DNA of 64,000 bases from Blastocatellia bacterium (GCA_039648975.1 JBBWZK010000135.1:753-64752); one strand, 5' to 3'; positions 5,547-56,480 are shown, numbered from the stretch's first letter. Numbers and translations are program-made. The notes: generated by a model not told the origin, from the letters alone.

Positions 5547-7739
<2,193 letters not shown>

Positions 7740-7772
7740 GCTCGCAGTAAAGCAATAAAGACTACAGAGGAT

Positions 7773-9074: not shown

Positions 9075-9078
9075 GGAA

Positions 9079-9166
9079 GGGGCTAGGGGCTAGGGGCTAG
9101 GGACTAGAGAGCAGAGGTTAGAGGTTAGTCCGGCCTGCCAGCCCCTAGCCCCTAGCCTCTAGCCTC
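9079..9166 (+). repeat. tandem heptamer array (GGGGCTA x3 decaying to GGGACTA GAGAGCA GAGGTTA GAGGTTA) plus downstream complementary C-rich arm; G4 motif and 17-bp hairpin
   Basis: Read directly. G-tracts at 9079-9082, 9086-9089, 9093-9096 and 9100-9102 are separated by CTA. ggctaggggctaggggc (9081-9097) is the exact reverse complement of gcccctagcccctagcc (9141-9157). The whole element fills the rhaI-kinase intergenic gap. Confidence 0.8.
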
Positions 9167-9169
9167 TTT

Positions 9170-10657: not shown

Positions 10658-10732
10658 CCCAAAGCCATGCGACTCGCTTTATTCATCACCGGCCCGTAGA
10701 AGTTTAGGTCATCAGAATTGAAGGGTGAGAAC

Positions 10733-12268: not shown

Positions 12269-12271
12269 GCG

Positions 12272-13249
12272 ATGAAGGTCAGTCGTTACAAACGAGAATT
12301 ATCGGCGGCGCTCGCCTTTGCGGCGCTGCTCGCCATTGTTGGCCTCTTCGCGTCGGCGTTTTTCGGCGCAGCCAATCTGCGTGACCTTGCGCTAAACAAT
12401 GCTCCAGTGCTGATTGTAGCGGTCGGCATGACGTTGGTCATCCTCGTCGGCGAGATAGACATCTCGGTTGGCTCGCAGTTCGCTGTCGCGAGCATCGCCG
12501 CCGCGTGGCTGGCCAAAGCAGGGATGCCTATGCCGCTATTGTTACCTTGCCTTCTTGTGATTGGCGCTACACTTGGCGCGGTGAACGGCCTGCTGATTGG
12601 CCGTTTTGGTCTGCCTTCGATTATCGTCACACTGGCGATGCTTGTGGCCTGGCGCGACGGCTTGCGATGGGTCACAGAGGGTGCATGGGTGCAGGACTTG
12701 CCGGCCAACTTTCAATGGTTCGGACTCGGACAGGCGTGGGGCCAATGGCTAATCGATGCCTTCGCGCTCATCGTCTTCTTGAGCCTTAACTGGATACTGC
12801 GCAACCTCAGAGATGGGCGGGCGGTCTATGCGGTCGGTTCTGACCGCGAAGCGGCGCGGCTCGCCGGCGTCGAACCCTCACGAGTGATCTTCGGCGTCTT
12901 CGTCTTGATGGGAATGCTAACCGGGCTTGCAGCGCTGCTGAATGCCGTGCGCTTTTCCAGTGTGCCGAGCAATGCCGGATCAGGGTTGGAATTGAAAGCG
13001 GTGGCGGCGGTCGTCGTCGGTGGAACGGCGATCACCGGCGGGCGCGGGCATCTGATCGGCACGCTGATAGGCGCGATGCTGCTGGGCGTCATTGGCACGG
13101 CGCTGACCTTTCTAGGGATCAATCCGTTTTGGGAGCGTAGCCTTCAGGGAGCGATTATCCTGGCCGCACTGGTTTCAGATACGGCGCTCAGCCGACTCGA
13201 CCAGTGGCGAATCGCCGGTCTCAGATTGCGGCGCGAGGGGGCGAAATGA
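12272..13249 (+). CDS. rhaP: sugar ABC transporter permease
   Basis: 325 aa, highly hydrophobic, ribose/rhamnose-type permease blocks (VGEIDISVGS, AVVVGGTAITGGRG). 4-nt ATGA overlap with the next gene at 13246-13249. Confidence 0.8.
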   Translation: MKVSRYKRELSAALAFAALLAIVGLFASAFFGAANLRDLALNNAPVLIVAVGMTLVILVGEIDISVGSQFAVASIAAAWLAKAGMPMPLLLPCLLVIGATLGAVNGLLIGRFGLPSIIVTLAMLVAWRDGLRWVTEGAWVQDLPANFQWFGLGQAWGQWLIDAFALIVFLSLNWILRNLRDGRAVYAVGSDREAARLAGVEPSRVIFGVFVLMGMLTGLAALLNAVRFSSVPSNAGSGLELKAVAAVVVGGTAITGGRGHLIGTLIGAMLLGVIGTALTFLGINPFWERSLQGAIILAALVSDTALSRLDQWRIAGLRLRREGAK

Positions 13250-27439: not shown

Positions 27440-27655
27440 CTATAGCGGTGTTCAAATCGGTTTAGCATGTAGGGGCGACCCTGCGGTGGCCGCCCCAGTG
27501 TAGGCCGGCGCAGTCTGGGGAGGCCACCGCAGGGCCTCCCCTACATGATGGCGGCTTAATCCAATTGATATCTGCTCTAGAGCGGTTTTCAATTGAATGT
27601 AGCGCAAGCTAACAGCTTGCGCTACATGGCAAACGCATTTGAAAATCGCTCTAAG
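27440..27655. repeat. composite palindromic element, copy A (TIR-like end + double GC-hairpin module 27466-27547 + GTAGCGCAAGC hairpin element 27577-27655)
   Basis: Read directly. Near-identical, in reverse complement, to 56198-56480. Starts 10 nt upstream of the GH51 ATG. Track ORF 27452..27889 is a translation artefact of this DNA. Confidence 0.85.
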
Positions 27656-29410: not shown

Positions 29411-29740
29411 GGCTTTGCCGCCCGATGGACGGCGATGGCTTTGAGGATTCGCTTTTTCGTGGCTCTGCCGCCTGATCTGCGGAAAGGCTCCGCCTTTCCG
29501 GGCCAGAGCCTCCATAACAGAGACTCCCCCTTACATCGGCGGCTCTGCCGCCTGATCTGCGGAACAGAACCTCCACGAACCGATGCCCGCGAACAAGTGA
29601 AAGCGAAAAGTAAGAAGCCTGATCTGCGGAACAGAACCTCCACGAACCCTCATTGGCGGCTCTGCCGCCTGATCTGCGGAAAGGCTCCGCCTTTCCGTGT
29701 AGAGCCTCCCCCCTTAACCCGCATTGGCGGCTGCGCCGCC
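29411..29740. repeat. cluster of 4-5 REP units (GGCGGCTCTGCCGCC-TGATCTG-CGGAAAGGCTCCGCCTTTCCG and variants)
   Basis: Read directly: full or partial units start near 29411, 29461, 29538, 29617 and 29655, plus GGCGGCTGCGCCGCC at 29726-29740. Each unit is two short GC hairpins. Spacing is irregular (about 40-80 nt). Confidence 0.85.
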
Positions 29741-30382
29741 GTTTATGCCCTGCGCCAATCGATTTTCTCTATATCAACCGCGAGCGGCTCATCTTCCAGT
29801 GCGCGGCGTTGCCAGATTCGCGCGCTTGAATATAAATAATCCGGCGCGCTTTCGACCAATCCGGCGCGCACCGGGTTGAGGTGAATATAATTGACTTTCT
29901 CCATAAACATCGCTTCGCTGAGAATCAGAAAGGCGTTTGAATGATGTTCCCACAAGGAGTATTGGTATTGCCGAGATTTCACTTCCTGCCGCAACTTTTC
30001 CAGCGAACTGGCATACGCTTTTTCTTTCAGGTAATCGATCACGCGCCGGGCCGCGATGCCATTGATAAACCGCAAAACCTCTTTCGGCAGGCGCGCGCCA
30101 TCGGTGATCAAATGAACATGGTCGGGCATGATGACATAGGCGAAAATCAGAATATTCGCCGACCGCCGCGCTTCATTGAAGGCATTGGCGACGATGGCCT
30201 TGATCTGGTTGGTCTGAAAAACCGGCAACCGATCTTTTGCCACACAGGTCAAATAATAGCAGGGCGCGTCTCTGGAAATTCTGACCATGTTGTTTGATCC
30301 TACGGCGGCGCAGCCGCCAACCTTAAAGAGCCCAGCTATCGGAAAGGCCGAGCCTTTCCGCACATCGGGCGGCAGAGCCGCC
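29655..30382 (-). mobile_element. REP-RAYT-REP unit (REP-associated tyrosine transposase flanked by inverted REPs)
   Basis: The left flank (29655-29740) and right flank (30304-30382) carry the same two hairpin motifs in opposite orientation. These are ggcggctgcgccgcc / ggcggcgcagccgcc and cggaaaggc(t/c)c(c/g)gcctttccg with ggcggctctgccgcc / ggcggcagagccgcc. This is the arrangement described for RAYT loci. Confidence 0.75.
29743..30288 (-). CDS. REP-associated tyrosine transposase (RAYT; IS200/IS605 TnpA-like HUH Y1 enzyme)
   Basis: Track ORF 29743..30363, trimmed to ATG 30288 (MVRISRDAPCYYL). HUH motif MPDHVHLI. Tyr motif YIHLNPVRAGLV. 181 aa. Confidence 0.85.
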   Translation of the reverse strand: MVRISRDAPCYYLTCVAKDRLPVFQTNQIKAIVANAFNEARRSANILIFAYVIMPDHVHLITDGARLPKEVLRFINGIAARRVIDYLKEKAYASSLEKLRQEVKSRQYQYSLWEHHSNAFLILSEAMFMEKVNYIHLNPVRAGLVESAPDYLYSSARIWQRRALEDEPLAVDIEKIDWRRA

Positions 30383-34604: not shown

Positions 34605-35205
34605 CCGCTTTGTGCAGCCCGAACAATTTCCAGGCCGATTTTAGCCCATAAGTTTGCTATGCGCTATGCCGTGCTAATTTCTTTATCGTTTCTTTTGCGA
34701 TAAGGCTGGGGCGGGCAACTCGCCTGAATAATAACCACTGACGATCCGCCTACGAGCAGAAGTTCATATCCGCATATTGATTTGCCGTTGCCCTTACGCT
34801 ATCCCCACGATGTAGGGCATGACATCAAACGCCGATCTCTACGCGAAATCAAAAAGCCAGAAGTTGCACACGCTATTTCAGGGCTATGGAGTTAATCTTA
34901 TGATGGGCATGGGTGGACTAAAGACCTTTGCGGAAGCGGAAAGAATATAATGAGCCGCGGCATCTACTTAATTCAAAGCGACGGTCAACTCGTTGAAATG
35001 ACCGAACGGGCGTATGACTCCGAGGACTTGCTGCATATCATTGCTCCGCCTATCCCTGTAAGAGCAGGGCATCGTCGTTTCGTCTCTCCTCTAAAATCAG
35101 GTTGGCAATCAATTCTTTGTGGTATATTTCTGTTCGGGTTACCACTTCAAAGTAAAGACAGTTTAGCTCTGGTAAGTCTTGCCGTTTCTGCGAACAGAAT
35201 AGCGA

Positions 35206-35315
35206 CTTAGAGCGGTTTTTAATCGGATGTAGCGCAAGCGGTTAGCTTGCGCAGCGACTCGCGCAAGCTAACCGCCTTGCGCTACATGGCAAACGCATTT
35301 GAAAATCGCTCTAAG
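35206..35315. repeat. palindromic GTAGCGCAAGC-type element, two-hairpin copy
   Basis: cttagagcggtttttaatcggatGTAGCGCAAGCggttaGCTTGCGCagcgactcGCGCAAGCtaaccgccTTGCGCTACatggcaaacgcatttgaaaatcgctctaag. The ends are inverted repeats of each other. Confidence 0.85.
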
Positions 35316-35632
35316 GTAAATACTCGCTCTGGTTTTTATGAGTGAGTTGGTTAAGGATAAGTGGCTTTGGAATCTGCTTTGAAAGTTTCCAGACCCGCAG
35401 TTCACCAAACTGTCGCTTAACCGCCGATGATAGTTTTGCTGTCCGTTTGGTGCGTATAACAGTTGGGGGAGCAAGCGAAAACAAAATTCTTGATCCCAAG
35501 GCAGGGGTAATTTTGAAAAGTAATCCTTAGTTCAAAAGTTGCTCTGTAGCGTGGGGCAGTCGGTTGCCGTCGAAGCACCGGCTCTCCGTTTACATCAGCT
35601 CGGCAGAACAATGTCGTTTGAGGAGTGGGAAT

Positions 35633-37210
35633 ATGCAAAGCCCTCAAGGGGAGGCTGAAAACCTCATCGAAGGAAAGAATTCTGTTCCAGTCGAAGCCGG
35701 CGCGGCAAACCCTGCACCCGGAAACGGCGTCGCCGGGACACCGCCGGCCATCAAGTTTGGCCGCATGTTTGCCGACCTCACGCGTTTCAGACCTGACAAT
35801 AAAAAACTGATAGAACTGGGTAAAGCGATGCTACATGGGCCAGACCTTGGCGAACATCCTGATCTGCTCGCCGGTTATACGTACCTGGGCCAGTTCATCA
35901 CGCATGACATGACGTTCGACCATAAGCGGGAGATGCTCCCTGAGCCGGTTGATGAGGTGACGAAAATCCAGCAAGATCGAACGCTTGCTCTTTCCCTGGA
36001 AACCCTCTACGGGATCGGTAAACCTTCGGACAATGCCTCATTGTATGATGATCACGCGGCGCTCCCCGAGCGAACATATTTTAAGGTCGGCGTTACAGAC
36101 CCAGAGACCGAGGGCGGGGCTAGTTGCTCATACCGGAATGACCTGCCGAGAGTCAAAAACCAGAACAAGGCGATGATCGGTGACGAGCGCAATGATGCGA
36201 ACTTGGCGCTCGCGCAACTGACCGTGGCATTTCTCAGATTTCATAATCGGGTTGTAGATCACCTCAAATCGAATAACCACCTCAATGAGGATACGTTATT
36301 TGAGAAGGCGCGCAAGATGGTGGTCCAGCATTTTCAATGGATTGTTCTGAAAGATTTCCTGCCAAAAATCATCGAGACAGAGGTGTTGGAATCGGTATTG
36401 GAACCCGTACTAAAGGATGCTCGTGAAAATCGGCCCAGAAACCTCGATGGCAAATGGCCTTTTATACCGGTCGAGTTTTCAGTCGCGGCCTTCCGCCTGG
36501 GTCATAGCATGGTGCGCAGCGCATACGAATGGAATCGCAATTTTCAGACTCCGAACCCTAAGTCTCGTAACGGCGCCGTGCCGCCCTCTGACCTCTTTCT
36601 ACTTACAGGCCGTGACGGAACGATGGGCGAAGGTGGCGGGGCCTTACCGAGCCGGTGGATTATTGATTGGACTCGCTTTTTCGATTTCAACGGCTTTAAC
36701 GGCATCGCCAATAATCCGAAATTCAACCTGGCGAGAAAGATTGATACGAGCCTTTCTCCTGGTCTAAGAAGCTTCAAGGATTTCATTAGCACGGTTATCG
36801 CGGACCCTGACCTCCGGTCGCTGCCCGTGCTGGACTTGATCCGTGGGAGCCGGCTGGGGCTGCCGACCGGGCAGGACGTTGCAGGCGCGCTAAAAGTAGA
36901 TCCACTTGCGGCGACCAAGATTGCCAATGGCCCTCACCAGGAGATCTTGAAAACCCATCATTTCGATGAGCAAACACCGCTGTGGTACTACATCTTGAAA
37001 GAGGCGGAGGTGCTTCACGAAGGGAAATGTTTGGGGCCGGTTGGCAGTCGCATCGTCGCGGAAACGGTCATCGAACTCATGTGGGTGAGCCAGCATTCCA
37101 TTCTCAAAGAGCCCAATTGGAGACCCGAGTTGTGGCAAAAAAAAGAAGGGGAATTTGGCATGGCTGACCTGCTAGTTTTTGCGAATGTCGTCAATCCTCT
37201 GGGCTGTTAA
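35633..37210 (+). CDS. animal-haem-peroxidase-family protein (cytoplasmic; no signal peptide seen)
   Basis: Track ORF 35564..37210, trimmed to ATG 35633 (AGGAG upstream). Distal-His block YLGQFITHDMTFD, then ERNDANLALAQLTVAFLRFHNRVV, proximal-His block FSVAAFRLGHSMV. Confidence 0.8.
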   Translation: MQSPQGEAENLIEGKNSVPVEAGAANPAPGNGVAGTPPAIKFGRMFADLTRFRPDNKKLIELGKAMLHGPDLGEHPDLLAGYTYLGQFITHDMTFDHKREMLPEPVDEVTKIQQDRTLALSLETLYGIGKPSDNASLYDDHAALPERTYFKVGVTDPETEGGASCSYRNDLPRVKNQNKAMIGDERNDANLALAQLTVAFLRFHNRVVDHLKSNNHLNEDTLFEKARKMVVQHFQWIVLKDFLPKIIETEVLESVLEPVLKDARENRPRNLDGKWPFIPVEFSVAAFRLGHSMVRSAYEWNRNFQTPNPKSRNGAVPPSDLFLLTGRDGTMGEGGGALPSRWIIDWTRFFDFNGFNGIANNPKFNLARKIDTSLSPGLRSFKDFISTVIADPDLRSLPVLDLIRGSRLGLPTGQDVAGALKVDPLAATKIANGPHQEILKTHHFDEQTPLWYYILKEAEVLHEGKCLGPVGSRIVAETVIELMWVSQHSILKEPNWRPELWQKKEGEFGMADLLVFANVVNPLGC

Positions 37211-37270
37211 AAAATGGCTTCAGAGCGCACACGTGCAGTTCCTGAAAATAAATCGAAAAGGAGAGCGACC

Positions 37271-37675
37271 ATGGCTAAAAAGATCATTGCTAAGTTGAGA
37301 GCAATAAATGCTCAGGTAGAATTGGAATTGGCCGAGGCGAAATTGGCCAATCTTGAAGATCCGACGATATCGACAGAGTCAGATCTTGCCAAAATCCTGT
37401 CCGACCTCGCTTTGCAGGCGATCCAGGGGGGCCGCGATTCTGCTGCCTGGAAAGCCTATATGCGTAAAATCGTCGGCACGGACAACCCTGACTCTCTGCA
37501 ATTCAAGCGGCTGACCTTTCAGGATGACCTGCGAGGTCAAGACTACGTAGTAAAAAGTAATGTCTACATCGTTGCTAACGCGGTTTGTGGCAGCAACACG
37601 CGGACCAATACCCTGGCAAACGTAGAGACCGAAGGTACAGACATTATCGACAAAGATCTGGCTGCGGAGGCCTGA
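37271..37675 (+). CDS. 134-aa hypothetical protein with helical N-terminal half ending in a double-glycine-leader-like motif
   Basis: Track ORF 37214..37675. ATG 37271 has AAGGAG 7-8 nt upstream; ATG 37214 (3 nt after the peroxidase stop) is the alternative. ...DLAKILSDLALQAIQGG at residues 38-54. Stop TGA 37673-37675 lies 1 nt before the next ATG. Confidence 0.6.
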   Translation: MAKKIIAKLRAINAQVELELAEAKLANLEDPTISTESDLAKILSDLALQAIQGGRDSAAWKAYMRKIVGTDNPDSLQFKRLTFQDDLRGQDYVVKSNVYIVANAVCGSNTRTNTLANVETEGTDIIDKDLAAEA

Positions 37676-37676
37676 G

Positions 37677-39128
37677 ATGAACCGGGAAGCAGGTGAAATT
37701 GAACGACCATCTGATGCTGCCCGCCGCGATGCGAATGCCATTGCGCAATCGCTATCGCGGTTGTGGCAGCGTCTTTGTAAAACTTATTTGCCTGTAGCGC
37801 CGGAAGATTCAATCTGGAGCTTCAGCCGCGCCATAAAGGCGAGCGACCCGGAGCAGGGCTGGAAGCTTCATGTTTCGGCAAACCTGCTGACGGCCTGCGA
37901 AGTCCTCGAACGGGTTGCCCCATTTCTACAGGCCCGCGAGGTTCTCTTTAAGGCCCCTTCGACATTGCAATGGCTCAGTCAACTCAACTGCGGCCTTGAT
38001 CGGGAGTATAGCCAGGTCGGGAAGTTCATTACCGTCTATCCTGGCAGTGACGAAGAGGCGGTTTTTCTGGCGCGGCGGTTGCACAAAATGACTCTTGGCC
38101 GATCCGCTCCCGCCGTGCCGTTTGATCTGAAGTTCCGGCCCGATAGCTCTGTTTATTATCGCTATGGGGGCTTCAAGGCATTGGAAATCATTAACCCTGA
38201 CGGCACCCGCACGCCGGCCATCCGAAATCAGAATGGCGAGCTGATCTCGGACTTATGCAAAGACGGAGCTGCGAGGCCCGTCTGGATATCTGATCCTTTT
38301 ATTAATCAACAGACGCGACGCAAACCAAAGATGATTGAGAATCCGTTCAGCACCAATCTTCTGGTGCTTCGCGCCTTGAGCCAGAGGGGAAAAGGAGGCG
38401 TCTACCAGGGCATTGATCTGAGCGATTCGAAGCCGCGCCTTTGCATCATAAAAGAAGGGCGTCATGGTGGCGAGATAGGCTGGGATGGCCGCGACGGCAA
38501 CTGGAGAGTACGAAATGAAGAATGGGTACTGCGGAGCTTGCGAGTTGCGGGCCTCAACGTTCCGCGTACTTACTCTTCCTTTGAACTCGAACGCAATTAC
38601 TATCTGGTGACAGAATTCATTGAGGGCGACACGCTCCAGAGGCGGCTGAACAAGAGAAAGCGGCGGTTGAGCATCACTCAAGCGCTGCGCTATGGCCATG
38701 AGATTGCGCGCCTTATATCCAAGATCCACGCCGCCGGTTGGGCATGGCGCGATTGTAAGCCGGCCAATCTGCTGGTGACGACGAAAGGCGAATTAAGGCC
38801 GGTCGATTTTGAAGGGGCTTGTCCCTTGGATAAGCCGGATCCTTTGCCCTGGAATACGCCGGAATTCTCTCCTCCGGAATGGCAAGATGCGTGTGCGCCG
38901 CAATCGAGAATAGCTGAAGATATTTATGCGGTCGGGGCGGTCATGCATTATTTATTAACCGGCAGATGGCTTGATGCTTCAAGCCGTGTACGACTATCTG
39001 AATTGCGCCCAAACGTACCTGCTTTCGTGTGCGCACTGGTCTCCGACATGGTGGCTAGCGACCCTCAGCAAAGACCCAGCGCCAGGTGCTTGACAGACAA
39101 ATTCAAAGCAGCTTTATCGTTGGCCTAG
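37677..39128 (+). CDS. LanKC/LanL-like phosphoSer/Thr-lyase domain + Ser/Thr kinase domain, no cyclase domain
   Basis: 483 aa, GGAGG 8 nt upstream. N-terminal blocks QGWKLHVSA, FKAPSTL, QVGKFITVYP, VYYRYGGF, ISDPF resemble my memory of the RamC/LabKC N-termini. Kinase motifs GKGGVYQG, CIIKEG, WRDCKPANLLV, VDFEGA, FSPPEW. The protein ends about 60 aa after the kinase core. Confidence 0.65.
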   Translation: MNREAGEIERPSDAARRDANAIAQSLSRLWQRLCKTYLPVAPEDSIWSFSRAIKASDPEQGWKLHVSANLLTACEVLERVAPFLQAREVLFKAPSTLQWLSQLNCGLDREYSQVGKFITVYPGSDEEAVFLARRLHKMTLGRSAPAVPFDLKFRPDSSVYYRYGGFKALEIINPDGTRTPAIRNQNGELISDLCKDGAARPVWISDPFINQQTRRKPKMIENPFSTNLLVLRALSQRGKGGVYQGIDLSDSKPRLCIIKEGRHGGEIGWDGRDGNWRVRNEEWVLRSLRVAGLNVPRTYSSFELERNYYLVTEFIEGDTLQRRLNKRKRRLSITQALRYGHEIARLISKIHAAGWAWRDCKPANLLVTTKGELRPVDFEGACPLDKPDPLPWNTPEFSPPEWQDACAPQSRIAEDIYAVGAVMHYLLTGRWLDASSRVRLSELRPNVPAFVCALVSDMVASDPQQRPSARCLTDKFKAALSLA

Positions 39129-39202: not shown

Positions 39203-41674
39203 TCATGACGAAAGTTTAGCGCATTTAACCAGCTCGATAATTCCAGGGTCTGTGCGAATGGAGTCTAGAAACGGCTCCATCATCAAGAAGGGGAAGGTTG
39301 CAAATTTATCGCTGCAAGCTTGCTGTAATAATGCATACGCTCGCTCTTTTTCGCCAAGCCCGATGTAAATAAGCGCCTTTTCCTGAGGCGGTATATCAGG
39401 TTCCTTTGATAGTTTATCAAGGATTTCCAGCGCCTCGCTTTTTCTTCCGGCCCTTCCATAAGCAAAGCCCAGCGGGGCAGCGCCGTAGAAGTTATCTGCG
39501 GCGTAGAGCTTTTGAAACACCTTTATAGAGTCTTGCAACATCCCTTTTTGCAGGTAGGCCAACCCCAGTACGTTCAGCGTCGCAAGGTGATCGGGATTTC
39601 TTTCAAGATTCATCCGGCAGTATTCGATAGCTTTGTCATAGTGTCGCGAGTAGTAGTAGGCAAGCCCCACATTCATGATTGAGGGCGGGGCAAACGGCTC
39701 AAGGTCCCAGGCGATTTCGCTTTCCCTTATCGCTTCATCCTCCCGCCCTTTCAGCCCCAGGAGGCGGGAATACCAGAAATGTGCCGGGGAGTATTCAGGG
39801 TTTAGCTCAATCGCCCGCTTAAACTCTTTTTCAGCCGCTTGCCAATCCCATTCGTACTTTAATAGGTAAACCGCCTTAGAGGTATGCGCTTCTGCAAGCG
39901 TGTCATCAATCTCTATAGCCTTATTCGCAGCCCATTTCGCATTATTCATGGCCTCTCTGGTGGATATTGGACGACCAAAAGTAACCGCGCTCAACAAGAC
40001 GTAGGAATCCGCCAGCCCGGCGTAGGCCTTGGCGTAGTACGGATCCAGCTTGACCGCCCGGTCAAAGAAATTGATGGCTTTCTTAATATTCTCTTTGTTT
40101 CTATCGTTCCAATAATACCGTCCGTAGAAATACATTCTGCAAGCTTCCTCATTTTCGGTGGGGCGGGCAAATAAAAGCCGCTTTTCGTCTTCGCTGAGCG
40201 AGAGATGTAATTTAGAGGCCAGTTTATAAGCAAGGTCAGATTGAAGACTTAGCAATTCGCCGGGCGCGATGATGTACTTATCCTCCCAAATCGGCAACCC
40301 GTCCGCCGAATCGACCAGCTTGACTTCAAGCGCAAGGGCTTCATTCTCTGTTGTCAGCGTTCCAAAAAGCACCGCCTGGACGTTGAAATCACTCAGTATC
40401 CGCCGCTGCGCCTCCTGATCATCCTCGTAAGCCGGGATCACGGTCGGCGCTTTAACCTTCAGCTTTGACAGACTGGAAAGCCGGTTGGTGATCCCCTCGG
40501 TCAGCCCTTTGCTCAGAATTTCAGCGTTCGCATCCTTGCTTTTGTTGACTATCGGAAGCACCGCGAGCGTCTGAATCCTTGATGGTTTTAAATAAACCAT
40601 CAAGATGGCGAGGACGAGCAGCAAAAGCAGAACGGCGGCAACATAGTTGCGGATCTGATAGCGGGCTGGCCGCCTCGGGCTGAGTCGGGCCACTTCTGGG
40701 GGATTGTCGAGGTCCAGGAGAAGCTCACTCGCGGATTGGTATCGTAGCTCTCTATCTCTCTGCAAGCACTTCTGAACGATGGAGGTCAGCCCCGGCTGAA
40801 TATGGGTTGAACAACTGATCATTTCGTAAAGGACAATCCCGAAGCTGAAGATGTCACTACGATAGTCCAGCCTCTCGGACCTCAGTTGCTCCGGGGACAT
40901 ATAAGCTATGGTGCCGACCACCAATCCCAATTTGGCGCTTTCACTTTCAGCCATGTTGAGCGCATCCGGTTTTTGCTGAACGTGTTTTGCCAGCCCGAAA
41001 TCGAGAACCTTCACCTGCCCGGTGGCCGTCACCATGATGTTTTGCGGCTTTATGTCACGGTGGATGATGCCATGAGAGTGGGCTTCGATGAGGGCGCTGA
41101 CGATCTGAATAGCTAAGTGAGAAATCTTTTCAGATGGGAACGTCCCATTGCGTATCAGCGAGGCCAGCGTTTCGCCTTCGATATACTGCATCACGATGAA
41201 GTTATATCCGTCGTGTTCTTCAAAATCATGCACGACGCAGATGTTCGGGTGATCCAGTCGCCCTATGGCCTGGGCCTCTTTCTTCAGTTGTCTTTTGGCC
41301 CATGCATCATCGGTAAATGGGTGAGAGAGAAATTTTAGAGCAACTTTGCGGTCGAGCCGGTCATCTTGCGCAAGATAAACTTCCCCCATGCCGCCCCGGC
41401 CCAACAACACCTGAATCTGATATGAGCCGATCTGTTTTCCGACCAGCGACTCTTTTTCCGGCTCCTCGGCCAGCACCTTCATTCCGAGGCTGAAGGCAGG
41501 CCGTTCCATGAACTCTCGTTTATTCTCGAAGGCGGCGATTAAGGACTCAACCTCCCTGCGCAGCGATGCATCATCCACGCAAACCTTGGCCAGATACACG
41601 GCTCTCTCTTCGGCGCTAAGGCCCATCGCTTCATGGAACAGGACTTCGGTGCGCTGCCAGTTCTTAGGCTTCAT
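39203..41674 (-). CDS. membrane-spanning Ser/Thr protein kinase with TolB-N-like and TPR sensor region
   Basis: 823 aa. GRGGMGEVYLA, VALKF, HRDIKPQNIMV, DFGLA, YMSPEQ. TM segment YVAAVLLLLLVLAILMVYL. LAVLPIVNKSKDANAEILSKGLTEGI module followed by multiple TPR-like repeats. Start overlaps the sigma-factor stop by 11 nt. Confidence 0.85.
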   Translation of the reverse strand: MKPKNWQRTEVLFHEAMGLSAEERAVYLAKVCVDDASLRREVESLIAAFENKREFMERPAFSLGMKVLAEEPEKESLVGKQIGSYQIQVLLGRGGMGEVYLAQDDRLDRKVALKFLSHPFTDDAWAKRQLKKEAQAIGRLDHPNICVVHDFEEHDGYNFIVMQYIEGETLASLIRNGTFPSEKISHLAIQIVSALIEAHSHGIIHRDIKPQNIMVTATGQVKVLDFGLAKHVQQKPDALNMAESESAKLGLVVGTIAYMSPEQLRSERLDYRSDIFSFGIVLYEMISCSTHIQPGLTSIVQKCLQRDRELRYQSASELLLDLDNPPEVARLSPRRPARYQIRNYVAAVLLLLLVLAILMVYLKPSRIQTLAVLPIVNKSKDANAEILSKGLTEGITNRLSSLSKLKVKAPTVIPAYEDDQEAQRRILSDFNVQAVLFGTLTTENEALALEVKLVDSADGLPIWEDKYIIAPGELLSLQSDLAYKLASKLHLSLSEDEKRLLFARPTENEEACRMYFYGRYYWNDRNKENIKKAINFFDRAVKLDPYYAKAYAGLADSYVLLSAVTFGRPISTREAMNNAKWAANKAIEIDDTLAEAHTSKAVYLLKYEWDWQAAEKEFKRAIELNPEYSPAHFWYSRLLGLKGREDEAIRESEIAWDLEPFAPPSIMNVGLAYYYSRHYDKAIEYCRMNLERNPDHLATLNVLGLAYLQKGMLQDSIKVFQKLYAADNFYGAAPLGFAYGRAGRKSEALEILDKLSKEPDIPPQEKALIYIGLGEKERAYALLQQACSDKFATFPFLMMEPFLDSIRTDPGIIELVKCAKLSS

Positions 41675-42227
41675 TGGTCAACTCGCGCGCAAGCCACGCT
41701 TTGGCTAAGTTCCAATCGCGCATAACTGTGACGGGAGAGACCTTCAGCACCTCTGCGGTCTCCTCGACGCTGAGGCCGCCAAAAAAACGCAACTCGACGA
41801 CCTGACTCTTTCGCTCGTCTATCGAGGCCAGTCGGTTCAACGCTTCATCAAGAGCGATCAACTCGGCGGATCGCTCGGTTGATATAATGGCTTCCGAGAG
41901 CGATACGTGGATTGCGCCGCCACCGCGCTTGATGCGGTTCTGGTCTCGCGCATAATTGAGTAGAATGCGGCGCATGATCCGCGCCGAAATGGCGATAAAG
42001 TGCGCCCGATTTTGCCAGCGCACCCGGGTCTGGTCCATCAGCCGGACAAACGCCTCGTTGACCAGGGCCGTAGTCTGTAACATGTGGCCGGGATACTCAT
42101 GATGCATATATTGGTGTGCCAGACGATGAAGCTCTTTTTCGACTAAAGGGATCAGCCGCTCCAAGGCATTCTGATCTCCATTGCACCATGCGATGAGTAG
42201 ACCTGTAACTTCTGTGGAAGAGTGCAT
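41664..42227 (-). CDS. ECF-type RNA polymerase sigma factor (kinase-associated subgroup)
   Basis: Track ORF 41664..42263 starts at TTG; ATG 42227 (MHSSTEVTGLLIAWCNGDQNALERLIPLV) is the alternative I list. Region 2 ALVNEAFVRL; region 4 LSVEETAEVLKVSPVTVMRDWNLAKAWL. Start is uncertain. Confidence 0.8.
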   Translation of the reverse strand: MHSSTEVTGLLIAWCNGDQNALERLIPLVEKELHRLAHQYMHHEYPGHMLQTTALVNEAFVRLMDQTRVRWQNRAHFIAISARIMRRILLNYARDQNRIKRGGGAIHVSLSEAIISTERSAELIALDEALNRLASIDERKSQVVELRFFGGLSVEETAEVLKVSPVTVMRDWNLAKAWLARELTNEA

Positions 42228-42509
42228 AGCGTTTGAATCTGCGGCGTAACCTTCTCCTATCAAGAAAGCCTCACTACAACAAGACTGTTCTTAAATCAGA
42301 AGATAGTTTTTGACCCGATCTGGTGCGTTATGTCATGAAGGCGAAAATTGAGTCGCGTGAGTCTCAACCGGTCGTCTTCTGTTTTTAAGCTTAGGGCACC
42401 AGTGCAGTAGGTTATATATCGATTCTTACTGATATTGCAATCTCTTTTTTGGGATACCAGGCCATTTATGAAAGCTAAATTTACCGCTGATTCGGGCAGG
42501 AAAACTGTA

Positions 42510-42947
42510 ATGGCAAACACGATTAGAAGCTGGATGATGGTGGCTCTGGCCACAGTCGTTGCGCTCCTTTATGGCGGCGCGGTGCTGGGCATCGTCAAGC
42601 CGCAGGCCGACGAGAGAATGATTGAACGCATTGAGCCGATTATTTTTGTGATCATCGGATATTACTTTGGCAGGCTGCCTGCCCAGCAGAATGAAAACAC
42701 ATTGCGAGAAGAGATCAACCGTCAAGCTCAAAAGGCCGATGCGGCGCAGCATACTAAGGAGCAGGCGCAGCAGGCCAGAGAGTCGTTTGAAGAGAAGATG
42801 AAAAGCGTCAGGACGGTGTTGATGGCTTCGGTGTTGGGGCTTGAGAAAAAGCGGCAGACCGATAATCACGATAAGCCGGGCGGGCCGGTCTATGACGATT
42901 CTGTGCGCCAGTCAATGGCTGCTGCCATAAACATTCTGAACTCGTAA
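42510..42947 (+). CDS. hypothetical membrane-anchored coiled-coil protein
   Basis: Track ORF 42435..42947; starts at 42468 or 42510 are both possible. Two hydrophobic segments (WMMVALATVVALLYGGAVLGIV, IIFVIIGYYFG), then a charged helical stretch QQNENTLREEINRQAQKADAAQHTKEQAQQARESFEEKMK. Confidence 0.5.
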   Translation: MANTIRSWMMVALATVVALLYGGAVLGIVKPQADERMIERIEPIIFVIIGYYFGRLPAQQNENTLREEINRQAQKADAAQHTKEQAQQARESFEEKMKSVRTVLMASVLGLEKKRQTDNHDKPGGPVYDDSVRQSMAAAINILNS

Positions 42948-47364: not shown

Positions 47365-50250
47365 ATGACCATTGACAATCAACAAATCGCAGCGACGACC
47401 GAACGGTATAACAAGCGTGAGCGACACCGTCAACGCAACGAGCGGCTGATTAAACAACGGCGTTATCTGGAAGCCGACTCGCCGGCGCGCGTAGAGAAAT
47501 TTCTTGAGCGGCGCGGCATCAGCCGACAGGAAGCTGCCGAAATCCTGCATGAGTCTGCGCCGACAATGATGCCGAGGGCGGGGCGAAACGAGGGGGAGGG
47601 AGTCCCCGCCGCCTTTGAACGCATACTCGGCACCAACGATTTGATGGGGGTTGCCTTCCTCGAACGAGGGCTTCAAGTCGCGCGAACGGTCGGGCGAGTC
47701 TGGATTGCCGTTGCCAGCGGGCGACCGCTTGGGTACGGCACTGGCTTTATGATCTCGCCGCGCCTGCTAATGACCAATAACCATGTTCTCAGCAGTGCGG
47801 TCGACGCGCGAAAGTCTCTCGTAGAGTTCAATTATCAACTCGGTATCGACGGCAATGTCTTGGCGACGACGTCCTTTAGTCTCGATCCGGACACTTTCTT
47901 TTTCACAGATCAGCACCTGGACTATGCGGTGGTTGCTGTGCGGTTGAACAGAGCCGACAACGCAAGCTTGAGCGGCTTTGGCTGGAACCCTCTCTTTGAG
48001 GAGGAGGGCAAGGCCATCATCTCACAACAACTGAATATCATTCAGCACCCGAATGGAGAAGTGAAGCAACTGTGCCTGCGCGAGAACCAGTTGGTGGATG
48101 TTTTTGACGATTTTCTCCAGTACCGGACCGACACAGCACCGGGGTCGTCAGGCTCACCCGTTTACAATGATCGCTGGGAGGTCGTCGGGCTGCATCATTC
48201 AGGTGTAAGAGCCAAGAATGCCGCTGGTCAGATATTAGCGGTTGATGGGCGAATCTGGGACCCGAGCATGGGTGAACATCGCATCAAATGGATTGCCAAT
48301 GAAGGGATTCGTGTCAGTCGGCTCATCAATCACTTGCGCAATCAGCCGATGAATCAGGATCAAAGGCGACTCTGCGATGAGATTCTAACCAAGACGCCGC
48401 CCGCCCCTGGCGAGGCAAGCCCGCTGCCTGTAGCGCCCGTCTCTAGTCAGGTCTTTAGTAATAATGATCATTCAGCACAGGTCGCTGTCGCCTCTGACGG
48501 CACCGCCACATGGACTATCCCGCTATCGGTTTCAATCAGATTGGGCGCCGCCGCCACCCCGGCTACCGTCGCGCAGCCGAAAACCGACGTGGTCACGCCG
48601 CCGGCGATCCTCTCCTCTACGCCGACGCCCGTTCCCCCGCCAGTTTCAAGCGACCCGCAATCAATTCTTTCCGCGGCCCGACGTGAGTTGGGGGCGCGCG
48701 CTGATGTGCTGAGCGTCAGGCTTGGCTATGCATTCAAGGAAGGCTGGATCACCAATGAACGGGCGCTGGTCATCACTGTCCGGCAGAAGCATAGCCCGGC
48801 GGCGTTGCGTGAGGCAGGCATTTCTCCGCTGCCAGAAACCTATATGGGCTTGCCAATCGAAGTAACCAATCCGGCAATCGAGGAACTCGTCACTTTAGCC
48901 CGTGGAACGGCAGCGACTGAAGCCGCTTTTGCCGCACCTGCGACCATGCGCGAGGAGATTGCTTACACGTCTCCGGTTGGAGTTTCTCTCAAACAGCTTC
49001 ATGCGCAAATGCGTGTGATTGCGCATGTCAGCCCCGACGCCGGGTGGCCCAGGTTATCAACATTTTTAGCGGCAACGAAAAAGCGCCTGGTGGTTGGCAT
49101 GTATGACTTTGGCGCTCCTCACATTGCCGACGCGGTGGCGGCTGCCGGAAAGCAAGTCTCATTTAAGAAATTGACGCTGGTGATGCAACACGGTGAAGAT
49201 GTCGGAGACGGAACGAAGGCCAACGACCTGACCGATGATCAGGTCGTTGAGAAATTCAGCGAGGCCTTTCCGAATAAGTTTGAAAACGCCTGGGTCAAAA
49301 TCGGAAGGGTTAATGGCTGGGTGGCTTCATCCTATCATATAAAAGTTGCCGTGCAGGATCAGCGGGTCTTTTGGCTGTCTAGCGGCAACTGGCAATCATC
49401 AAATCAGCCGAATGGTGATCCGCTTAATGAAAACCCACAACGCCGGATGTGGCTTGAGAAGTTCAATCGGGAGTGGCATGTCGTCGTAGAGAATCCTGAC
49501 CTGGCTAAGGTCTTCGAAGCGCATTTGCTCCATGATTTCAACAACAACCTTGGGGTAAGCGAACATGAGAGACAACCGGCGGTCGACCTACCTGACCTGT
49601 TGATTCCCGATGAATTTTTCATGCCCAGTCCACATGAGAGAACGTCACCATTTCAGTACTTCAAGCCGTTTGACGAAAACCGGGTATTTACCGTCAAGCC
49701 ACTGCTGACGCCGGATAATTATCATCAAGAGGTTCTGAAACTGGTGGAAAGCGCCAAGGAAGAATTGCTCATTCAGAACCAGACCTTCAACGCGCCCAAG
49801 CCAGACCATGAGAAACTTCGCGAGTTGCTTGACGCCGTCAAGGCCAGACAGCGTGCGGGCGTCGATGTCCGGGTCATCTTTCGCATCCTTTTCCCCTCAA
49901 AAGCCCGGCAGGTGATCGAGGAGTTGAAGGATTTCGGGTTTGACGTAAGCAACGTGAAGGTGCAGAAGAATTGTCACACCAAAGGCATCATCGTCGATCA
50001 CAAACGTGTGCTACTGGGTAGCCAGAATTTGTCCAACGACGGCGTCTCCGTGAATCGTGATGCCAGTCTGTTGTTTGAGGACGTGTCGCTCGCTAAGTAC
50101 TTCGCTGCTATTTTCGAACACGATTGGAGCAACCTCGCCAAACAAAACATTGGCATGGAGGAGATGCCCATCGAATGGGCCGAGCCCCATGAAAAGACCC
50201 CATCAGGATTTGTCCGACTAAATTGGAAGGAGTATCTGGAGATGTTATAA
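47365..50250 (+). CDS. fusion protein: basic helical N-terminus + trypsin-like serine protease + Pro/Thr linker + two-HKD phospholipase-D-superfamily domain
   Basis: 961 aa, GGAAAGGAAG upstream, no signal peptide. Triad contexts LMTNNHVL, LDYAVVAV, TAPGSSGSPVY. Linker TPPAILSSTPTPVPPPVSS. HKD motifs SYHIKVAVQD...SSGNWQSSN and CHTKGIIVDHKRVLLGSQNLSNDG. Confidence 0.8.
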   Translation: MTIDNQQIAATTERYNKRERHRQRNERLIKQRRYLEADSPARVEKFLERRGISRQEAAEILHESAPTMMPRAGRNEGEGVPAAFERILGTNDLMGVAFLERGLQVARTVGRVWIAVASGRPLGYGTGFMISPRLLMTNNHVLSSAVDARKSLVEFNYQLGIDGNVLATTSFSLDPDTFFFTDQHLDYAVVAVRLNRADNASLSGFGWNPLFEEEGKAIISQQLNIIQHPNGEVKQLCLRENQLVDVFDDFLQYRTDTAPGSSGSPVYNDRWEVVGLHHSGVRAKNAAGQILAVDGRIWDPSMGEHRIKWIANEGIRVSRLINHLRNQPMNQDQRRLCDEILTKTPPAPGEASPLPVAPVSSQVFSNNDHSAQVAVASDGTATWTIPLSVSIRLGAAATPATVAQPKTDVVTPPAILSSTPTPVPPPVSSDPQSILSAARRELGARADVLSVRLGYAFKEGWITNERALVITVRQKHSPAALREAGISPLPETYMGLPIEVTNPAIEELVTLARGTAATEAAFAAPATMREEIAYTSPVGVSLKQLHAQMRVIAHVSPDAGWPRLSTFLAATKKRLVVGMYDFGAPHIADAVAAAGKQVSFKKLTLVMQHGEDVGDGTKANDLTDDQVVEKFSEAFPNKFENAWVKIGRVNGWVASSYHIKVAVQDQRVFWLSSGNWQSSNQPNGDPLNENPQRRMWLEKFNREWHVVVENPDLAKVFEAHLLHDFNNNLGVSEHERQPAVDLPDLLIPDEFFMPSPHERTSPFQYFKPFDENRVFTVKPLLTPDNYHQEVLKLVESAKEELLIQNQTFNAPKPDHEKLRELLDAVKARQRAGVDVRVIFRILFPSKARQVIEELKDFGFDVSNVKVQKNCHTKGIIVDHKRVLLGSQNLSNDGVSVNRDASLLFEDVSLAKYFAAIFEHDWSNLAKQNIGMEEMPIEWAEPHEKTPSGFVRLNWKEYLEML

Positions 50251-50415: not shown

Positions 50416-50578
50416 TTAGATCGGCTTGCGATGGGATGTAGGGCAAGCGGTGCAATATGGAGTGCGGTGACTGGTCACCGCTGTGCAGCATTCGATTGCA
50501 ACAAAGCGGCGACCAGTCTCAGCACTCCAAAACAGGCCGCTTCTCCTATGCCCTACACCGATCTGAAATCCGATCTAA
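50416..50578. repeat. nested-palindrome REP-like element (ATGTAGGGCA ... TGCCCTACAC with internal GGAGTGC-N-GCACTCC arms)
   Basis: Read directly. Outer arms ttagatcgg / ccgatctaa. Then atgtagggca (50436) / tgccctacac (50549-50558). Inner arms ggagtgcggtgactggtcaccgct / agcggcgaccagtctcagcactcc. Track ORF 50457..50831 (MECGDWSPLCS...SGDQSQHSK) is its translation artefact. Confidence 0.75.
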
Positions 50579-52347: not shown

Positions 52348-52455
52348 CTAGAGCGATTTTCAAATGCGTTTGCCATGTAGCGCAAGCGGTTAGCTTGCGC
52401 AGTATCGGGCGCAAGCTAACCGCTTGCGCTACATTCAATTGAAAACCGCTCTAAG
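52348..52455. repeat. palindromic GTAGCGCAAGC-type element, two-hairpin copy (opposite orientation to 35206-35315)
   Basis: ctagagcgattttcaaatgcgtttgccatGTAGCGCAAGCggttaGCTTGCGCagtatcggGCGCAAGCtaaccGCTTGCGCTACattcaattgaaaaccgctctaag. Confidence 0.85.
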
Positions 52456-55777: not shown

Positions 55778-56197
55778 TTATCTCCTTTAGGAGAATAATT
55801 GTAACACACTGATAGCCTCCGAAGCTCTCCTATAAGCAGAAGAAAAGGTCAGACTGCGAATCAAGCGCTCTTTCAAATTTCTCTTGGCTTCCTCTTCTAC
55901 ACCTCTCTTCTTGTAGTATGCTGCTCTGCGTCAGGCTGTTTTTCGTTTGTTCTACGAACGCCTGGCAGTCGGGCATGCCGCAGCCTCTGCACGAGAAATG
56001 CCATAGCCACCTGACTTCCTCGAACAGAGAGAGTTAGTGGACAGGCTTTCACTACATGACCCGAAAATATGTCTGATGGTATCTCGGATTGAAGTCAATC
56101 GAGGGATTGAACTCCACGTGGACGTTTTGAAAGTCCACATCAGGGTCAGTTTGGAATTCGTGTTTTCTTCTTACAAAACAACCCAGGTCAGGGATAT

Positions 56198-56480
56198 TAT
56201 AGCGATTTTCAAATGCGTTTGCCATGTAGCGCAAGCTGTTAGCTTGCGCAGCGACTCGCGCAAGCTGTTAGCTTGCGCAGCGACTCGCGCAAGCTGTTAG
56301 CTTGCGCTACATCCGATATTCAAAGCACGGCTGACAGAACACTAGAGCAGATTTCAATTGGATTAAGCCACAATCATGTAGGGGAGGCCCTCTGTGGCCT
56401 CCCCAGACTGCGCCGGCGGACTCTGGGGCGACCACAGAGGGTCGCCCCTACATGCTAAACCGATTTGAAAACCGCTATAG
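56198..56480. repeat. composite palindromic element, copy B (inverted relative to copy A; hairpin core triplicated)
   Basis: The reverse complement aligns end to end with 27440-27655. Differences are compensatory substitutions in the GC hairpins (56375-56454), a ~15-nt divergent stretch next to the first hairpin arm, and three tandem GCGCAAGCTGTTAGCTTGCGC(AGCGACTC) units at 56229-56307 instead of one. Confidence 0.85.

Follow-up and report, generated by a model that had tools for sequence, protein, structure and literature searches.

A conserved six-gene unit of Blastocatellia linking a cyclase-less lanthipeptide-type lyase-kinase to a small protein and a haem peroxidase

Results

Gene content and conservation of the module

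In a 64,000-nucleotide stretch of a Blastocatellia metagenome-assembled genome (GCA_039648975.1, JBBWZK010000135.1:753-64752; hereafter, the window), three consecutive genes at positions 35633-39128 encode a haem peroxidase (gene 1), a small protein (gene 2) and a lanthipeptide-synthetase-like lyase-kinase that lacks the cyclase domain (gene 3). These genes were found to belong to a conserved unit of six genes, which we interpret, with a probability of roughly 0.6, as a lanthipeptide-derived module under the control of an extracytoplasmic function (ECF) sigma factor, modifying its own small protein and including a haem-peroxidase step. A pathway of this kind, resembling those for peptides that are made ribosomally and modified after translation (RiPPs) and including the peroxidase, was one of two possibilities raised by a preceding sequence-only reading of the window, and it is the one supported by the data below. 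The features of the module are as follows.

35633-37210, + strand: gene 1, An_peroxidase; a longer version from a TTG start at 35564 is possible
37271-37675, + strand: gene 2, 134 residues, identical to the deposited hypothetical protein P0121; putative substrate protein
37677-39128, + strand: gene 3, 483 residues, identical to the deposited hypothetical protein P0001; lyase and kinase, without cyclase
39203-41674, - strand: receptor-type Ser/Thr kinase with tetratricopeptide repeats (TPR), 823 residues, convergent with gene 3; Pkinase (E = 7.6e-48) and TPR families
41664-42263, - strand: ECF sigma factor, PF07638 (E = 6.6e-51), overlapping the start of the kinase gene
42435-42947, + strand: P170, small membrane protein, divergent from the sigma factor; weak YtxH-like match only
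35428-35457, + strand: first copy of the promoter motif (TGATAGTTTTGCTGTCCGTTTGGTGCGTAT), ~180 nt upstream of the ATG of gene 1; exact GATAG-N18-GCGT
42301-42330, + strand: second copy of the promoter motif (AGATAGTTTTTGACCCGATCTGGTGCGTTA), upstream of P170

The three same-strand open reading frames (ORFs) lie where the sequence-only reading had placed them, and all of the motif strings quoted there were found in the translations. Related loci were collected with a lyase-kinase profile scan of species-representative genomes, yielding 80 loci at 43-73% identity, in which ORFs were called and labelled by similarity to the window proteins. The three genes were found together in dozens of species. 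Their tight packing, noted in the sequence-only reading, held for this genome, the 1-nt gap between genes 2 and 3 being peculiar to it; in relatives, the spacing of these two genes has an estimated median of ~69 nt and is 30 nt or less in 24 of 76 cases.

A boundary drawn around three genes proved too narrow, the conserved unit comprising six genes with two copies of one promoter motif. The order in about 77 loci of Blastocatellia and Pyrinomonadaceae is peroxidase, small protein, lyase-kinase, convergent kinase, ECF sigma factor and divergent P170. Among the 66 loci with enough flanking sequence, the convergent Ser/Thr kinase with TPR is present in 63, the ECF sigma factor behind it in 53 and P170 in 35 by phmmer (31 loci by clustering). 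Genes outside the six-gene block vary from locus to locus, so the block itself is apparently under selection; beyond P170, no gene other than a DyP-type peroxidase (see below) was conserved in more than five loci. The linkage outlasts rearrangement: in locus L080, the small gene and the lyase-kinase gene follow P170, and in L059 a peroxidase gene does. By visual inspection, the kinase has a single transmembrane stretch near residue 350, and P170 has two transmembrane helices and a coiled coil. Residues 563-789 of the kinase, in its TPR region, matched TIGR04510, 'putative peptide modification system cyclase', at 39.7 bits (cut-off 400), which probably reflects TPR similarity only.

Gene 3 encodes a lyase-kinase without a cyclase

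The assignment of gene 3 to LanL/LanKC-type lyase-kinases was confirmed by matches to RamC_N (E = 3.3e-39) and Pkinase (E = 4.4e-21). Of the NCBIfam LanL model, only positions 5-447 of 851 were covered (296 bits, cut-off 650); the cyclase domain is therefore absent, as had been proposed, and, lacking this defining domain, gene 3 is not filed as LanL or LanKC. Closest to it by sequence among solved structures was the class IV enzyme CuvL (8car/8cav, E = 1e-41), followed by class III ThurKC (E ~1e-28). An AlphaFold2 model (mean predicted local distance difference test score, pLDDT, 84; predicted TM-score, pTM, 0.58) aligned with CuvL, ThurKC and SalKC over 450-495 columns comprising both domains (E 1e-22 to 1e-31), with plain kinases ranking behind at ~1e-15. 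TM-scores were low (~0.4), which we attribute to the uncertain mutual orientation of the lyase and kinase domains in the model.

For the N-terminal half, sequence and predicted fold both match the LanKC/LanL lyase, and its catalytic residues are conserved. Among 22 homologues of 50-73% identity, the lyase residues K63, H65, K116, D150 and R162 are invariant or at least 90% conserved, and the kinase residues K259, E281, D359, K361, N364 and D377 are invariant. K63, H65, K116 and D150 correspond to K51, H53, K80 and D137 of VenL (PMC8341899), and K63, K116 and R162 align to K65, K117 and R163 of ThurKC (PMC10604976); the lyase residues have aligned counterparts in CuvL as well.

The family is large, with 1498 of 8000 scored candidates at E ≤ 0.001. 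The best 120 homologues are all 444-562 residues long and consist of RamC_N and Pkinase without LanC; those with named sources are mostly from Blastocatellia and Pyrinomonadaceae. A lyase-kinase of similar size (~480-510 residues) has been obtained by engineering, in VenL-deltaC and SgbL-deltaC, whereas the architecture of gene 3 is natural and characterises a large family. Without its cyclase, VenL (residues 1-513) retains activity as a monofunctional dehydratase (PMC2843593), and both VenL-deltaC and SgbL-deltaC fully dehydrate their precursor without ring formation (PMC2843593, PMC8341899).

The absence of a LanC gene from the window, noted from the sequence alone, was reproduced in a Pfam scan of the non-overlapping ORFs of at least 90 residues, one 144-residue ORF (33-467) being left out. 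No LanC was adjacent in relatives or within 10 kb in the ~77 related loci, whose flanking genes were identified only through resemblance to proteins of the window and through spot scans against Pfam.

Gene 2 encodes a protein with a predicted helical fold and a Ser/Thr-rich tail behind an invariant Cys

Gene 2 matches no Pfam or NCBIfam family. An exhaustive profile search retrieved 482 representative clusters, of which 271 had E ≤ 1e-10, with nearly all members 100-145 residues long, and a homologous small ORF lies upstream of the lyase-kinase gene in essentially every locus. Pfam matches among 38 family members were confined to spurious Serglycin hits on Ser-Gly repeats and one weak Frankia_peptide hit (E = 0.11), and were discarded. 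AlphaFold2, supplied with a 38-sequence alignment, predicted five helices between residues 5 and 105 (pLDDT 87.7, pTM 0.83) followed by a coil tail of residues 106-134, which starts at the invariant Cys106 and places Thr110 at position Cys+4. A Foldseek search of the PDB returned no fold relative (best E = 4.9).

The family consensus reads ...A.aAi.gG..S..W..YM..Fa....qL.rL......rAYlv.Ng.Cg..t......D. Across 168 representatives, the last helix ends with an invariant Cys, a residue seldom found in other parts of the protein; a Cys-x-x-x-Thr/Ser motif is present in 167, Cys+4 being Thr in 122 and Ser in 45, and the one remaining protein has a different residue there. Ser and Thr make up 24% of the first 12 tail residues and 11% of the helical part. 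A conserved recognition domain followed by a variable tail rich in Ser, Thr and Cys is characteristic of a RiPP-type precursor. The invariant Cys four residues before a near-invariant Thr/Ser also makes the earlier expectation, that an enzyme without cyclase would install no thioether rings, too strong.

The label 'double-glycine protein' was not upheld. The GG pair occupies residues 53-54, and only its second Gly is kept in the family, the first being less than 80% conserved in 60 sequences. The leader model TIGR01847 scored 13.2 bits (cut-off 15.7), and in the predicted structure the pair sits within the folded domain, where helix 2 ends and before helix 3 begins. No C39-peptidase ATP-binding cassette (ABC) transporter was found among the scanned ORFs of the window or in the neighbourhoods of related loci. 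As a lead only, the (E/Q)L.RL motif of gene 2 is reminiscent of LELQL, a motif in the leader of ThurA1 (PMC10604976). Like the precursor genes of LanKC and LanL, the small gene is adjacent to that of its presumed enzyme; its product is atypically long and predicted to be folded.

Tails of another kind occur in relatives labelled Solirubrobacterales, which keep the N-terminal region (FHFADGPEELARL) and carry poly-Thr tails with two Cys, such as TTLTTTTTVTTGACTTTTTTTTTSNFC (proteins P0155-P0158). There, an overlapping cyclase-less lyase-kinase gene follows the small gene (L084 9651-11392; L086 1812-3534), and neither a peroxidase nor a sigma factor nor LanC was found at these loci. This actinobacterial pair looks like a distinct RiPP-like subfamily, and the small protein together with the lyase-kinase constitutes the minimal conserved pair. 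In L086, a gene of the metallo-beta-lactamase fold (Anti-Pycsar_Apyc1/Lactamase_B matches) follows the lyase-kinase gene. In four other loci (L038, L041, L043 and L044), the small protein contains a Ser-Gly repeat insertion (SSSGSGSGSGSGY; small gene at ~9461-9862 in L041).

A 646-residue ORF, P0232 (L167 161-2101), joining peroxidase and small protein ahead of a lyase-kinase gene, was considered as a Rosetta-stone fusion and set aside. It is found on one 3.5-kb contig, its junction retains both an ATG and a Shine-Dalgarno sequence, and a TAA is present one frame off. Loss of a stop codon or a frameshift in the assembly is the probable origin of this ORF, which counts as weak evidence.

These features bear on whether the locus is an ordinary lanthipeptide cluster in split form, with LanC, protease and exporter encoded elsewhere and the peroxidase incidental. 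The lyase-kinase part of ThurKC needs its cyclase, which can also be supplied in trans (PMC10604976), lanthipeptide genes that lie outside clusters are known (PMC8960859), and our searches covered the window and the locus flanks. Against this stand the lack of LanC in the 64-kb window and the ~77 neighbourhoods described above, a substrate that, unlike known class III/IV precursors, has 100-145 residues, one conserved Cys and a domain predicted to be folded, and the retention in the regulon of a haem peroxidase from one of two unrelated families (see below). We regard a split cluster as improbable.

The two putative transcription units share a promoter motif

An unbiased two-block word count in the related loci returned TGATAG-N18-GCGT, extended to TGATAGTTT-N13-GGTGCGTTA. 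The motif lies upstream of P170 in 26 of 33 loci and upstream of the peroxidase gene in ~20 of 53, shuffled controls giving 4 or fewer. When both strands of 1.33 Mb were scanned with a weight matrix, only 70 matches were obtained: 26 before P170, 19 before the peroxidase, one before a labelled small gene and 18 before other genes, mostly an unlabelled gene at the P170 position or the small gene in peroxidase-less loci. The remaining six had no called downstream gene, and two of these precede peroxidase genes missed by the ORF caller. The window contains exactly two sites (35429-35455 and 42302-42328).

With one mismatch allowed (background 5.6% per 470 nt), the motif precedes the peroxidase in 41 of 52 peroxidase-containing loci and the small gene in one of 50 such loci, as compared with 11 of 16 loci without An_peroxidase. 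As the motif tracks whichever gene comes first, the peroxidase gene is placed in one transcription unit with those of the small protein and the lyase-kinase.

ECF promoters have an architecture like that of this motif, with a CGT-containing -10 element. The adjacent sigma factor scored 207 bits against TIGR02999 (cut-off 126); its gene overlaps that of the kinase by 11 nt, and the pair is kept in 53 of 66 loci. Belonging to a kinase-linked group and lying beside a Hanks-type kinase gene, it qualifies as a kinase-associated ECF factor and, given the co-localisation, is the obvious candidate to recognise the motif. Some ECF groups are linked to or regulated by Ser/Thr kinases (PMC7826278). Scans for sigma-70 promoters and intrinsic terminators between 35 and 43 kb gave uninformative, chance-level results. 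Rfam was searched between 34.5 and 43.5 kb in case the long 5' leaders held a riboswitch or another RNA, and no match was returned.

The link to the kinase/sigma pair also admits a signalling role, in which the OspF/SpvC-like lyase would irreversibly strip phosphothreonine from the receptor kinase or the phosphorylated ECF sigma factor and so exert feedback control, the small protein serving as adaptor or regulator and not as substrate. This is compatible with the regulation of ECF groups by kinases just mentioned, with the linkage of the lyase-kinase to the pair in 63 of 66 loci, even in the rearranged L080, and with the homology of the lyase domain to OspF-family effectors that act on kinases (PMC8341899). 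It sits poorly with the actinobacterial relatives, which keep the small protein and the lyase-kinase without the kinase/sigma pair. The fused, catalytically intact kinase domain points to two-step dehydration of one dedicated substrate, and the near-invariant Cys-x-x-x-Thr/Ser and the RiPP-like variable tails suit a substrate rather than an adaptor. We therefore hold an eraser function to be rather unlikely.

Two unrelated peroxidase families are associated with the module

The haem-peroxidase assignment of gene 1 was corroborated by Pfam An_peroxidase (E = 1.2e-24; PF03098, 87.2 bits, cut-off 25, profile positions 205-329 of 530 aligned), and its best solved matches were lactoperoxidase and myeloperoxidase. 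An_peroxidase was found directly upstream of the small gene and on the same strand in 49 of 67 loci by ORF calling, and tblastn added three more. In 52 cassette-linked relatives, which share 32-56% identity with the window protein, Gln87, the distal His91, Arg186, His204/Asn205, Arg288 and the proximal His291 are invariant. The haem-ester positions of gene 1 are Thr90 and Ala189, without the Asp and Glu of mammalian-type enzymes; position 189 is Glu in 45 of the 52 relatives, as is the haem-ester residue in lactoperoxidase, and position 90 is Asp in 18. Judged by these residues, the haem of the window enzyme is probably not covalently bound, unlike that of most relatives. In a distance tree, the nearest neighbour was of the same kind for 55 of 56 cassette-linked and 24 of 25 unlinked peroxidases, which indicates that the cassette-linked enzymes form a dedicated subfamily of their own.

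Loci without An_peroxidase carry an unrelated DyP-type peroxidase (DyP_N and Dyp_perox_C). It was found within 10 kb in 10 of 16 acidobacterial loci without An_peroxidase and in none of 56 with it, lying directly after P170 in one clade and divergent from the small gene in the other, and in 7 of the 10 loci the DyP unit stands behind the shared promoter motif. By inspection, a signal peptide is absent from both types. No consistent replacement gene was found in the slot just upstream of the small gene, which is taken by an S1/P1 nuclease, GlmS, TIM or TPR gene; the true replacement for An_peroxidase is DyP, located elsewhere in the regulon. In three loci of one clade (L036 7521-8555, L047 7544-8584 and L083 7444-8706, all on the - strand), proteins of 344-420 residues are encoded between the motif and the DyP gene. 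They have no Pfam match; those of L036 and L047 are 74% identical, that of L083 is dissimilar, and they may be additional members of the regulon.

The peroxidase type covaries with the tail of the small protein: Cys+4 is Thr in 47 of 49 An_peroxidase loci and Ser in all 16 loci without An_peroxidase. The Ser/DyP loci fall into two separate clades of a neighbour-joining lyase-kinase tree. Two 'peroxidase-less' loci that seemed to break the rule by having Thr (L029, L046) and a gene of '512 aa' in L026 were artefacts, the longest-ORF caller having picked antisense ORFs at these three loci, and the calls were corrected by tblastn.

The peroxidases might instead belong to an oxidative- or envelope-stress regulon, detoxifying H2O2 and being merely co-regulated, with the small protein and the lyase-kinase still forming a modification pair. 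ECF sigma factors often control stress regulons, P170 weakly matches the stress-protein family YtxH, most of the peroxidase family lies outside the cassette, and the replacement of An_peroxidase by DyP shows only that the regulon needs peroxidase activity. The covariation of peroxidase type with one tail residue speaks for a direct link, however, as do the dedicated subfamily of cassette-linked peroxidases and the position of the peroxidase gene, which is mostly the first of the small protein's transcription unit. On balance, a stress regulon seems unlikely, though less so than a signalling eraser or a split lanthipeptide cluster.

The restriction-modification locus is separate from the module

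Upstream of the cassette lies a type I restriction-modification (R-M) locus (hsdR/S/M), and the sequence-only reading had proposed a defence or conflict module as its second possibility. The cassette was described as part of an AT-richer, repeat-bounded segment. The region is indeed AT-richer (GC ~0.45-0.55 over 30-56 kb of the window, 0.56-0.62 outside), but the repeats bracket the R-M locus, not the cassette. Intergenic palindromic repeats resembling repetitive extragenic palindromes (REP) or miniature inverted-repeat transposable elements (MITE), with the core ATGTAGCGCAAGC....GCTTGCGCTACAT, occur at 27440-27655, 35201-35315, 50417-50577, 52349-52455 and 56197-56480; a 40-nt copy, 100% identical at 27616-27655 and 35276-35315, encloses the R-M locus, and the bracketed unit ends at 35315, just before the cassette promoter. 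A tRNA was sought as a boundary and none was found in the window. Between hsdM and hsdS, an IS200-like Y1 transposase (29743-30363, - strand, 206 residues), possibly REP-associated, is flanked by its own inverted repeats (29655-29697 and 30340-30382).

A role in anti-phage defence is suggested by the adjacency to hsdR/S/M in this genome and by PADLOC, in which gene 3 matched two kinase models, PD-T4-6 and mad6, with E values near 1e-20. These matches are to the generic kinase domain only, and genes 1 and 2 had no PADLOC match. An hsd gene was present in none of the 77 related loci, which, together with the R-M unit ending before the cassette promoter, leaves a defence island unsupported. The module is moreover fixed next to the sigma/kinase pair, and its phylogeny is consistent with vertical descent. 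Of all readings considered, defence is the least probable.

Other features of the window

Further genes of the window are recorded here. A probable sugar (rhamnose-like) utilisation cluster at 5547-15357 (+ strand) encodes an aldolase/short-chain dehydrogenase fusion, a RhaA-like isomerase, an FGGY kinase and components of an ABC transporter, among them a permease fused to a periplasmic binding domain. At 47365-50250 (+ strand), downstream of a gene for a 1125-residue protein without a family, an unusual 961-residue fusion combines an N-terminal trypsin-like protease with two matches to phospholipase D-like domains (PLDc_2). A 2429-residue surface-type protein (56605-63894, - strand) contains Calx-beta, FG-GAP, beta-propeller (SBBP) and carboxypeptidase-regulatory-like domains, and the 3' end of its gene carries five tandem copies of a 135-nt period (56621-57460).

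Discussion

Relation to known systems

The earlier statement that the cassette has no described counterpart stands as far as the open-access papers searched go, in which neither cyclase-less LanL/LanKC families nor peroxidases of RiPP clusters nor the module itself turned up. The combination of a natural cyclase-less enzyme family, a folded recognition domain of 100 residues, a single Cys-x-x-x-Thr/Ser site, a replaceable haem peroxidase and a kinase-linked ECF regulon was likewise absent from them. By analogy, the module would correspond in function to the dehydrating half of the class III/IV lanthipeptide pathway. Class IV LanL enzymes (VenL, SgbL, CuvL) and class III LanKC enzymes (RamC, ThurKC, SalKC) share with gene 3 the OspF-like lyase and the kinase, and a Ser/Thr/Cys-bearing substrate gene directly upstream is a further likeness. 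The module differs from them in having no LanC-type cyclase, in a substrate with a five-helix domain and a single Cys-x-x-x-Thr/Ser site, and in a co-transcribed haem peroxidase and an ECF sigma/kinase link, all in Acidobacteriota. The 'class VI' synthetases, streptococcal enzymes of LanKC type, were considered as a counterpart and are different.

Class V lanthipeptide and thioamitide systems employ a separate kinase and a HopA1-like lyase; compared with the module, these are other kinase and lyase families, on separate proteins, and no peroxidase is involved. What they have in common with it is a phosphorylation-elimination route of dehydration that needs no LanC-fused synthetase, their rings being formed by other proteins (PMC9486802). 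RiPP leaders of the NHLP/Nif11 type resemble gene 2 in joining a large, protein-like recognition domain to a short modified C-terminus (PMC12537861), whereas gene 2 shows no sequence or fold similarity to them and has neither a conserved double-glycine site nor a C39 peptidase transporter.

On the regulatory side, ECF43 and related factors (EcfP/PknT, EcfK/PknS) are likewise encoded beside a Hanks-type kinase without an apparent anti-sigma factor (PMC7826278, PMC13147305); the TGATAG-N18-GCGT motif and its targets were not found in the literature searched, and phosphorylation of the sigma factor is putative here. With bacterial peroxidase-cyclooxygenases and DyP enzymes, the peroxidases share haem-binding and catalytic residues (An_peroxidase) and the DyP_N and Dyp_perox_C domains, respectively, and appear to differ from other bacterial members in being dedicated subfamilies within a protein-modification operon. 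In the literature searched, neither family was connected with RiPP or lanthipeptide pathways.

Proposed pathway

In the pathway we propose, the membrane Ser/Thr kinase with TPR would activate the adjacent TIGR02999-type ECF sigma factor, which would in turn transcribe the two TGATAG-N18-GCGT units, that of peroxidase, small protein and lyase-kinase and that of P170. The shared motif and the co-localisation make it probable that the module is switched on in this way. The lyase-kinase would then recognise the folded helical N-terminal domain of the 134-residue protein, phosphorylate Ser/Thr of its tail, chiefly at Cys+4, and eliminate the phosphate to give dehydrobutyrine (Dhb) or dehydroalanine (Dha). 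Binding of the helical domain and dehydration of the tail are the steps we consider most likely, in view of the homology, the conserved residues and the VenL-deltaC precedent.

In a following step, the invariant Cys would add to the dehydro residue, giving a five-residue (methyl)lanthionine-type thioether ring without LanC; the conservation of the motif gives this closure about an even chance. The cytoplasmic haem peroxidase would oxidise the same site or aid ring closure, for example through a thiyl radical. That it acts on the Cys/Thr-Ser site at all is marginally favoured by its membership of the operon, the displacement of An_peroxidase by DyP and the Thr/Ser covariation. Dehydroalanine readily takes up thiols and dehydrobutyrine is less reactive, and one may speculate that a peroxidase-made thiyl radical closes the ring on dehydrobutyrine, sulfoxidation or another oxidation being equally possible. 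As no protease or exporter is conserved, the end product may remain a modified intracellular protein and not become a secreted peptide.

A further-reaching version, which we put forward tentatively and regard as somewhat doubtful, would make the haem peroxidase an integral enzyme of a ribosomal protein-modification pathway with a cyclase-less LanL-type dehydratase. It would carry out radical thioether closure or ring oxidation, on Dhb/Dha or on the adjacent Cys, with An_peroxidase paired with Thr tails and DyP only with Ser tails.

Several observations weigh against a self-modifying module with a peroxidase step. Its chemistry is throughout what we infer from homology and gene context. The lyase-kinase half of ThurKC is inactive without its cyclase (PMC10604976); set beside the active VenL truncation, this makes activity of gene 3 without a cyclase likely by analogy, not certain. 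The LanC search covered the window and flanks of ~10 kb, and a stand-alone LanC elsewhere in the genome is possible. The module has no conserved leader protease or exporter. The peroxidase family is wider than the cassette, a lyase-kinase gene following in 3 of 30 metagenomic relatives (34-45% identity, enough flank), and the regulon might include peroxidases just for their role against oxidative stress.

Neither peroxidase type was found within 10 kb in L038, L041, L043, L044 and L080; the first four form a tight subclade with an S1/P1 nuclease gene upstream and the promoter motif directly before the small gene, and their close relative L045 retains DyP after P170. The Thr/Ser and An_peroxidase/DyP correlations trace back to about two events in evolution; their support is therefore overstated by naive Fisher tests (p = 2e-13 and 1.5e-8, respectively). 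Finally, it is from co-localisation alone that we infer recognition of the motif by the adjacent sigma factor, and no motif was found before the sigma/kinase operon itself.

Implications

With three to six genes, the module is small and amenable to reconstitution in E. coli. If the proposed pathway is true, phosphorylation and elimination of the lanthipeptide type exist as a natural stand-alone dehydratase, in a family with more than 1000 members in soil Acidobacteria whose present annotation goes no further than 'protein kinase'. Haem peroxidases would be added to the enzymes of ribosomal peptide and protein modification as a new partner for dehydroamino-acid chemistry, two unrelated peroxidase families having been recruited to one module, and, should the peroxidase be integral, RiPP-like modification would gain a new class, under receptor-kinase/ECF-sigma control. 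A kinase-linked ECF sigma factor of a poorly studied phylum would also gain a promoter motif and a compact regulon.

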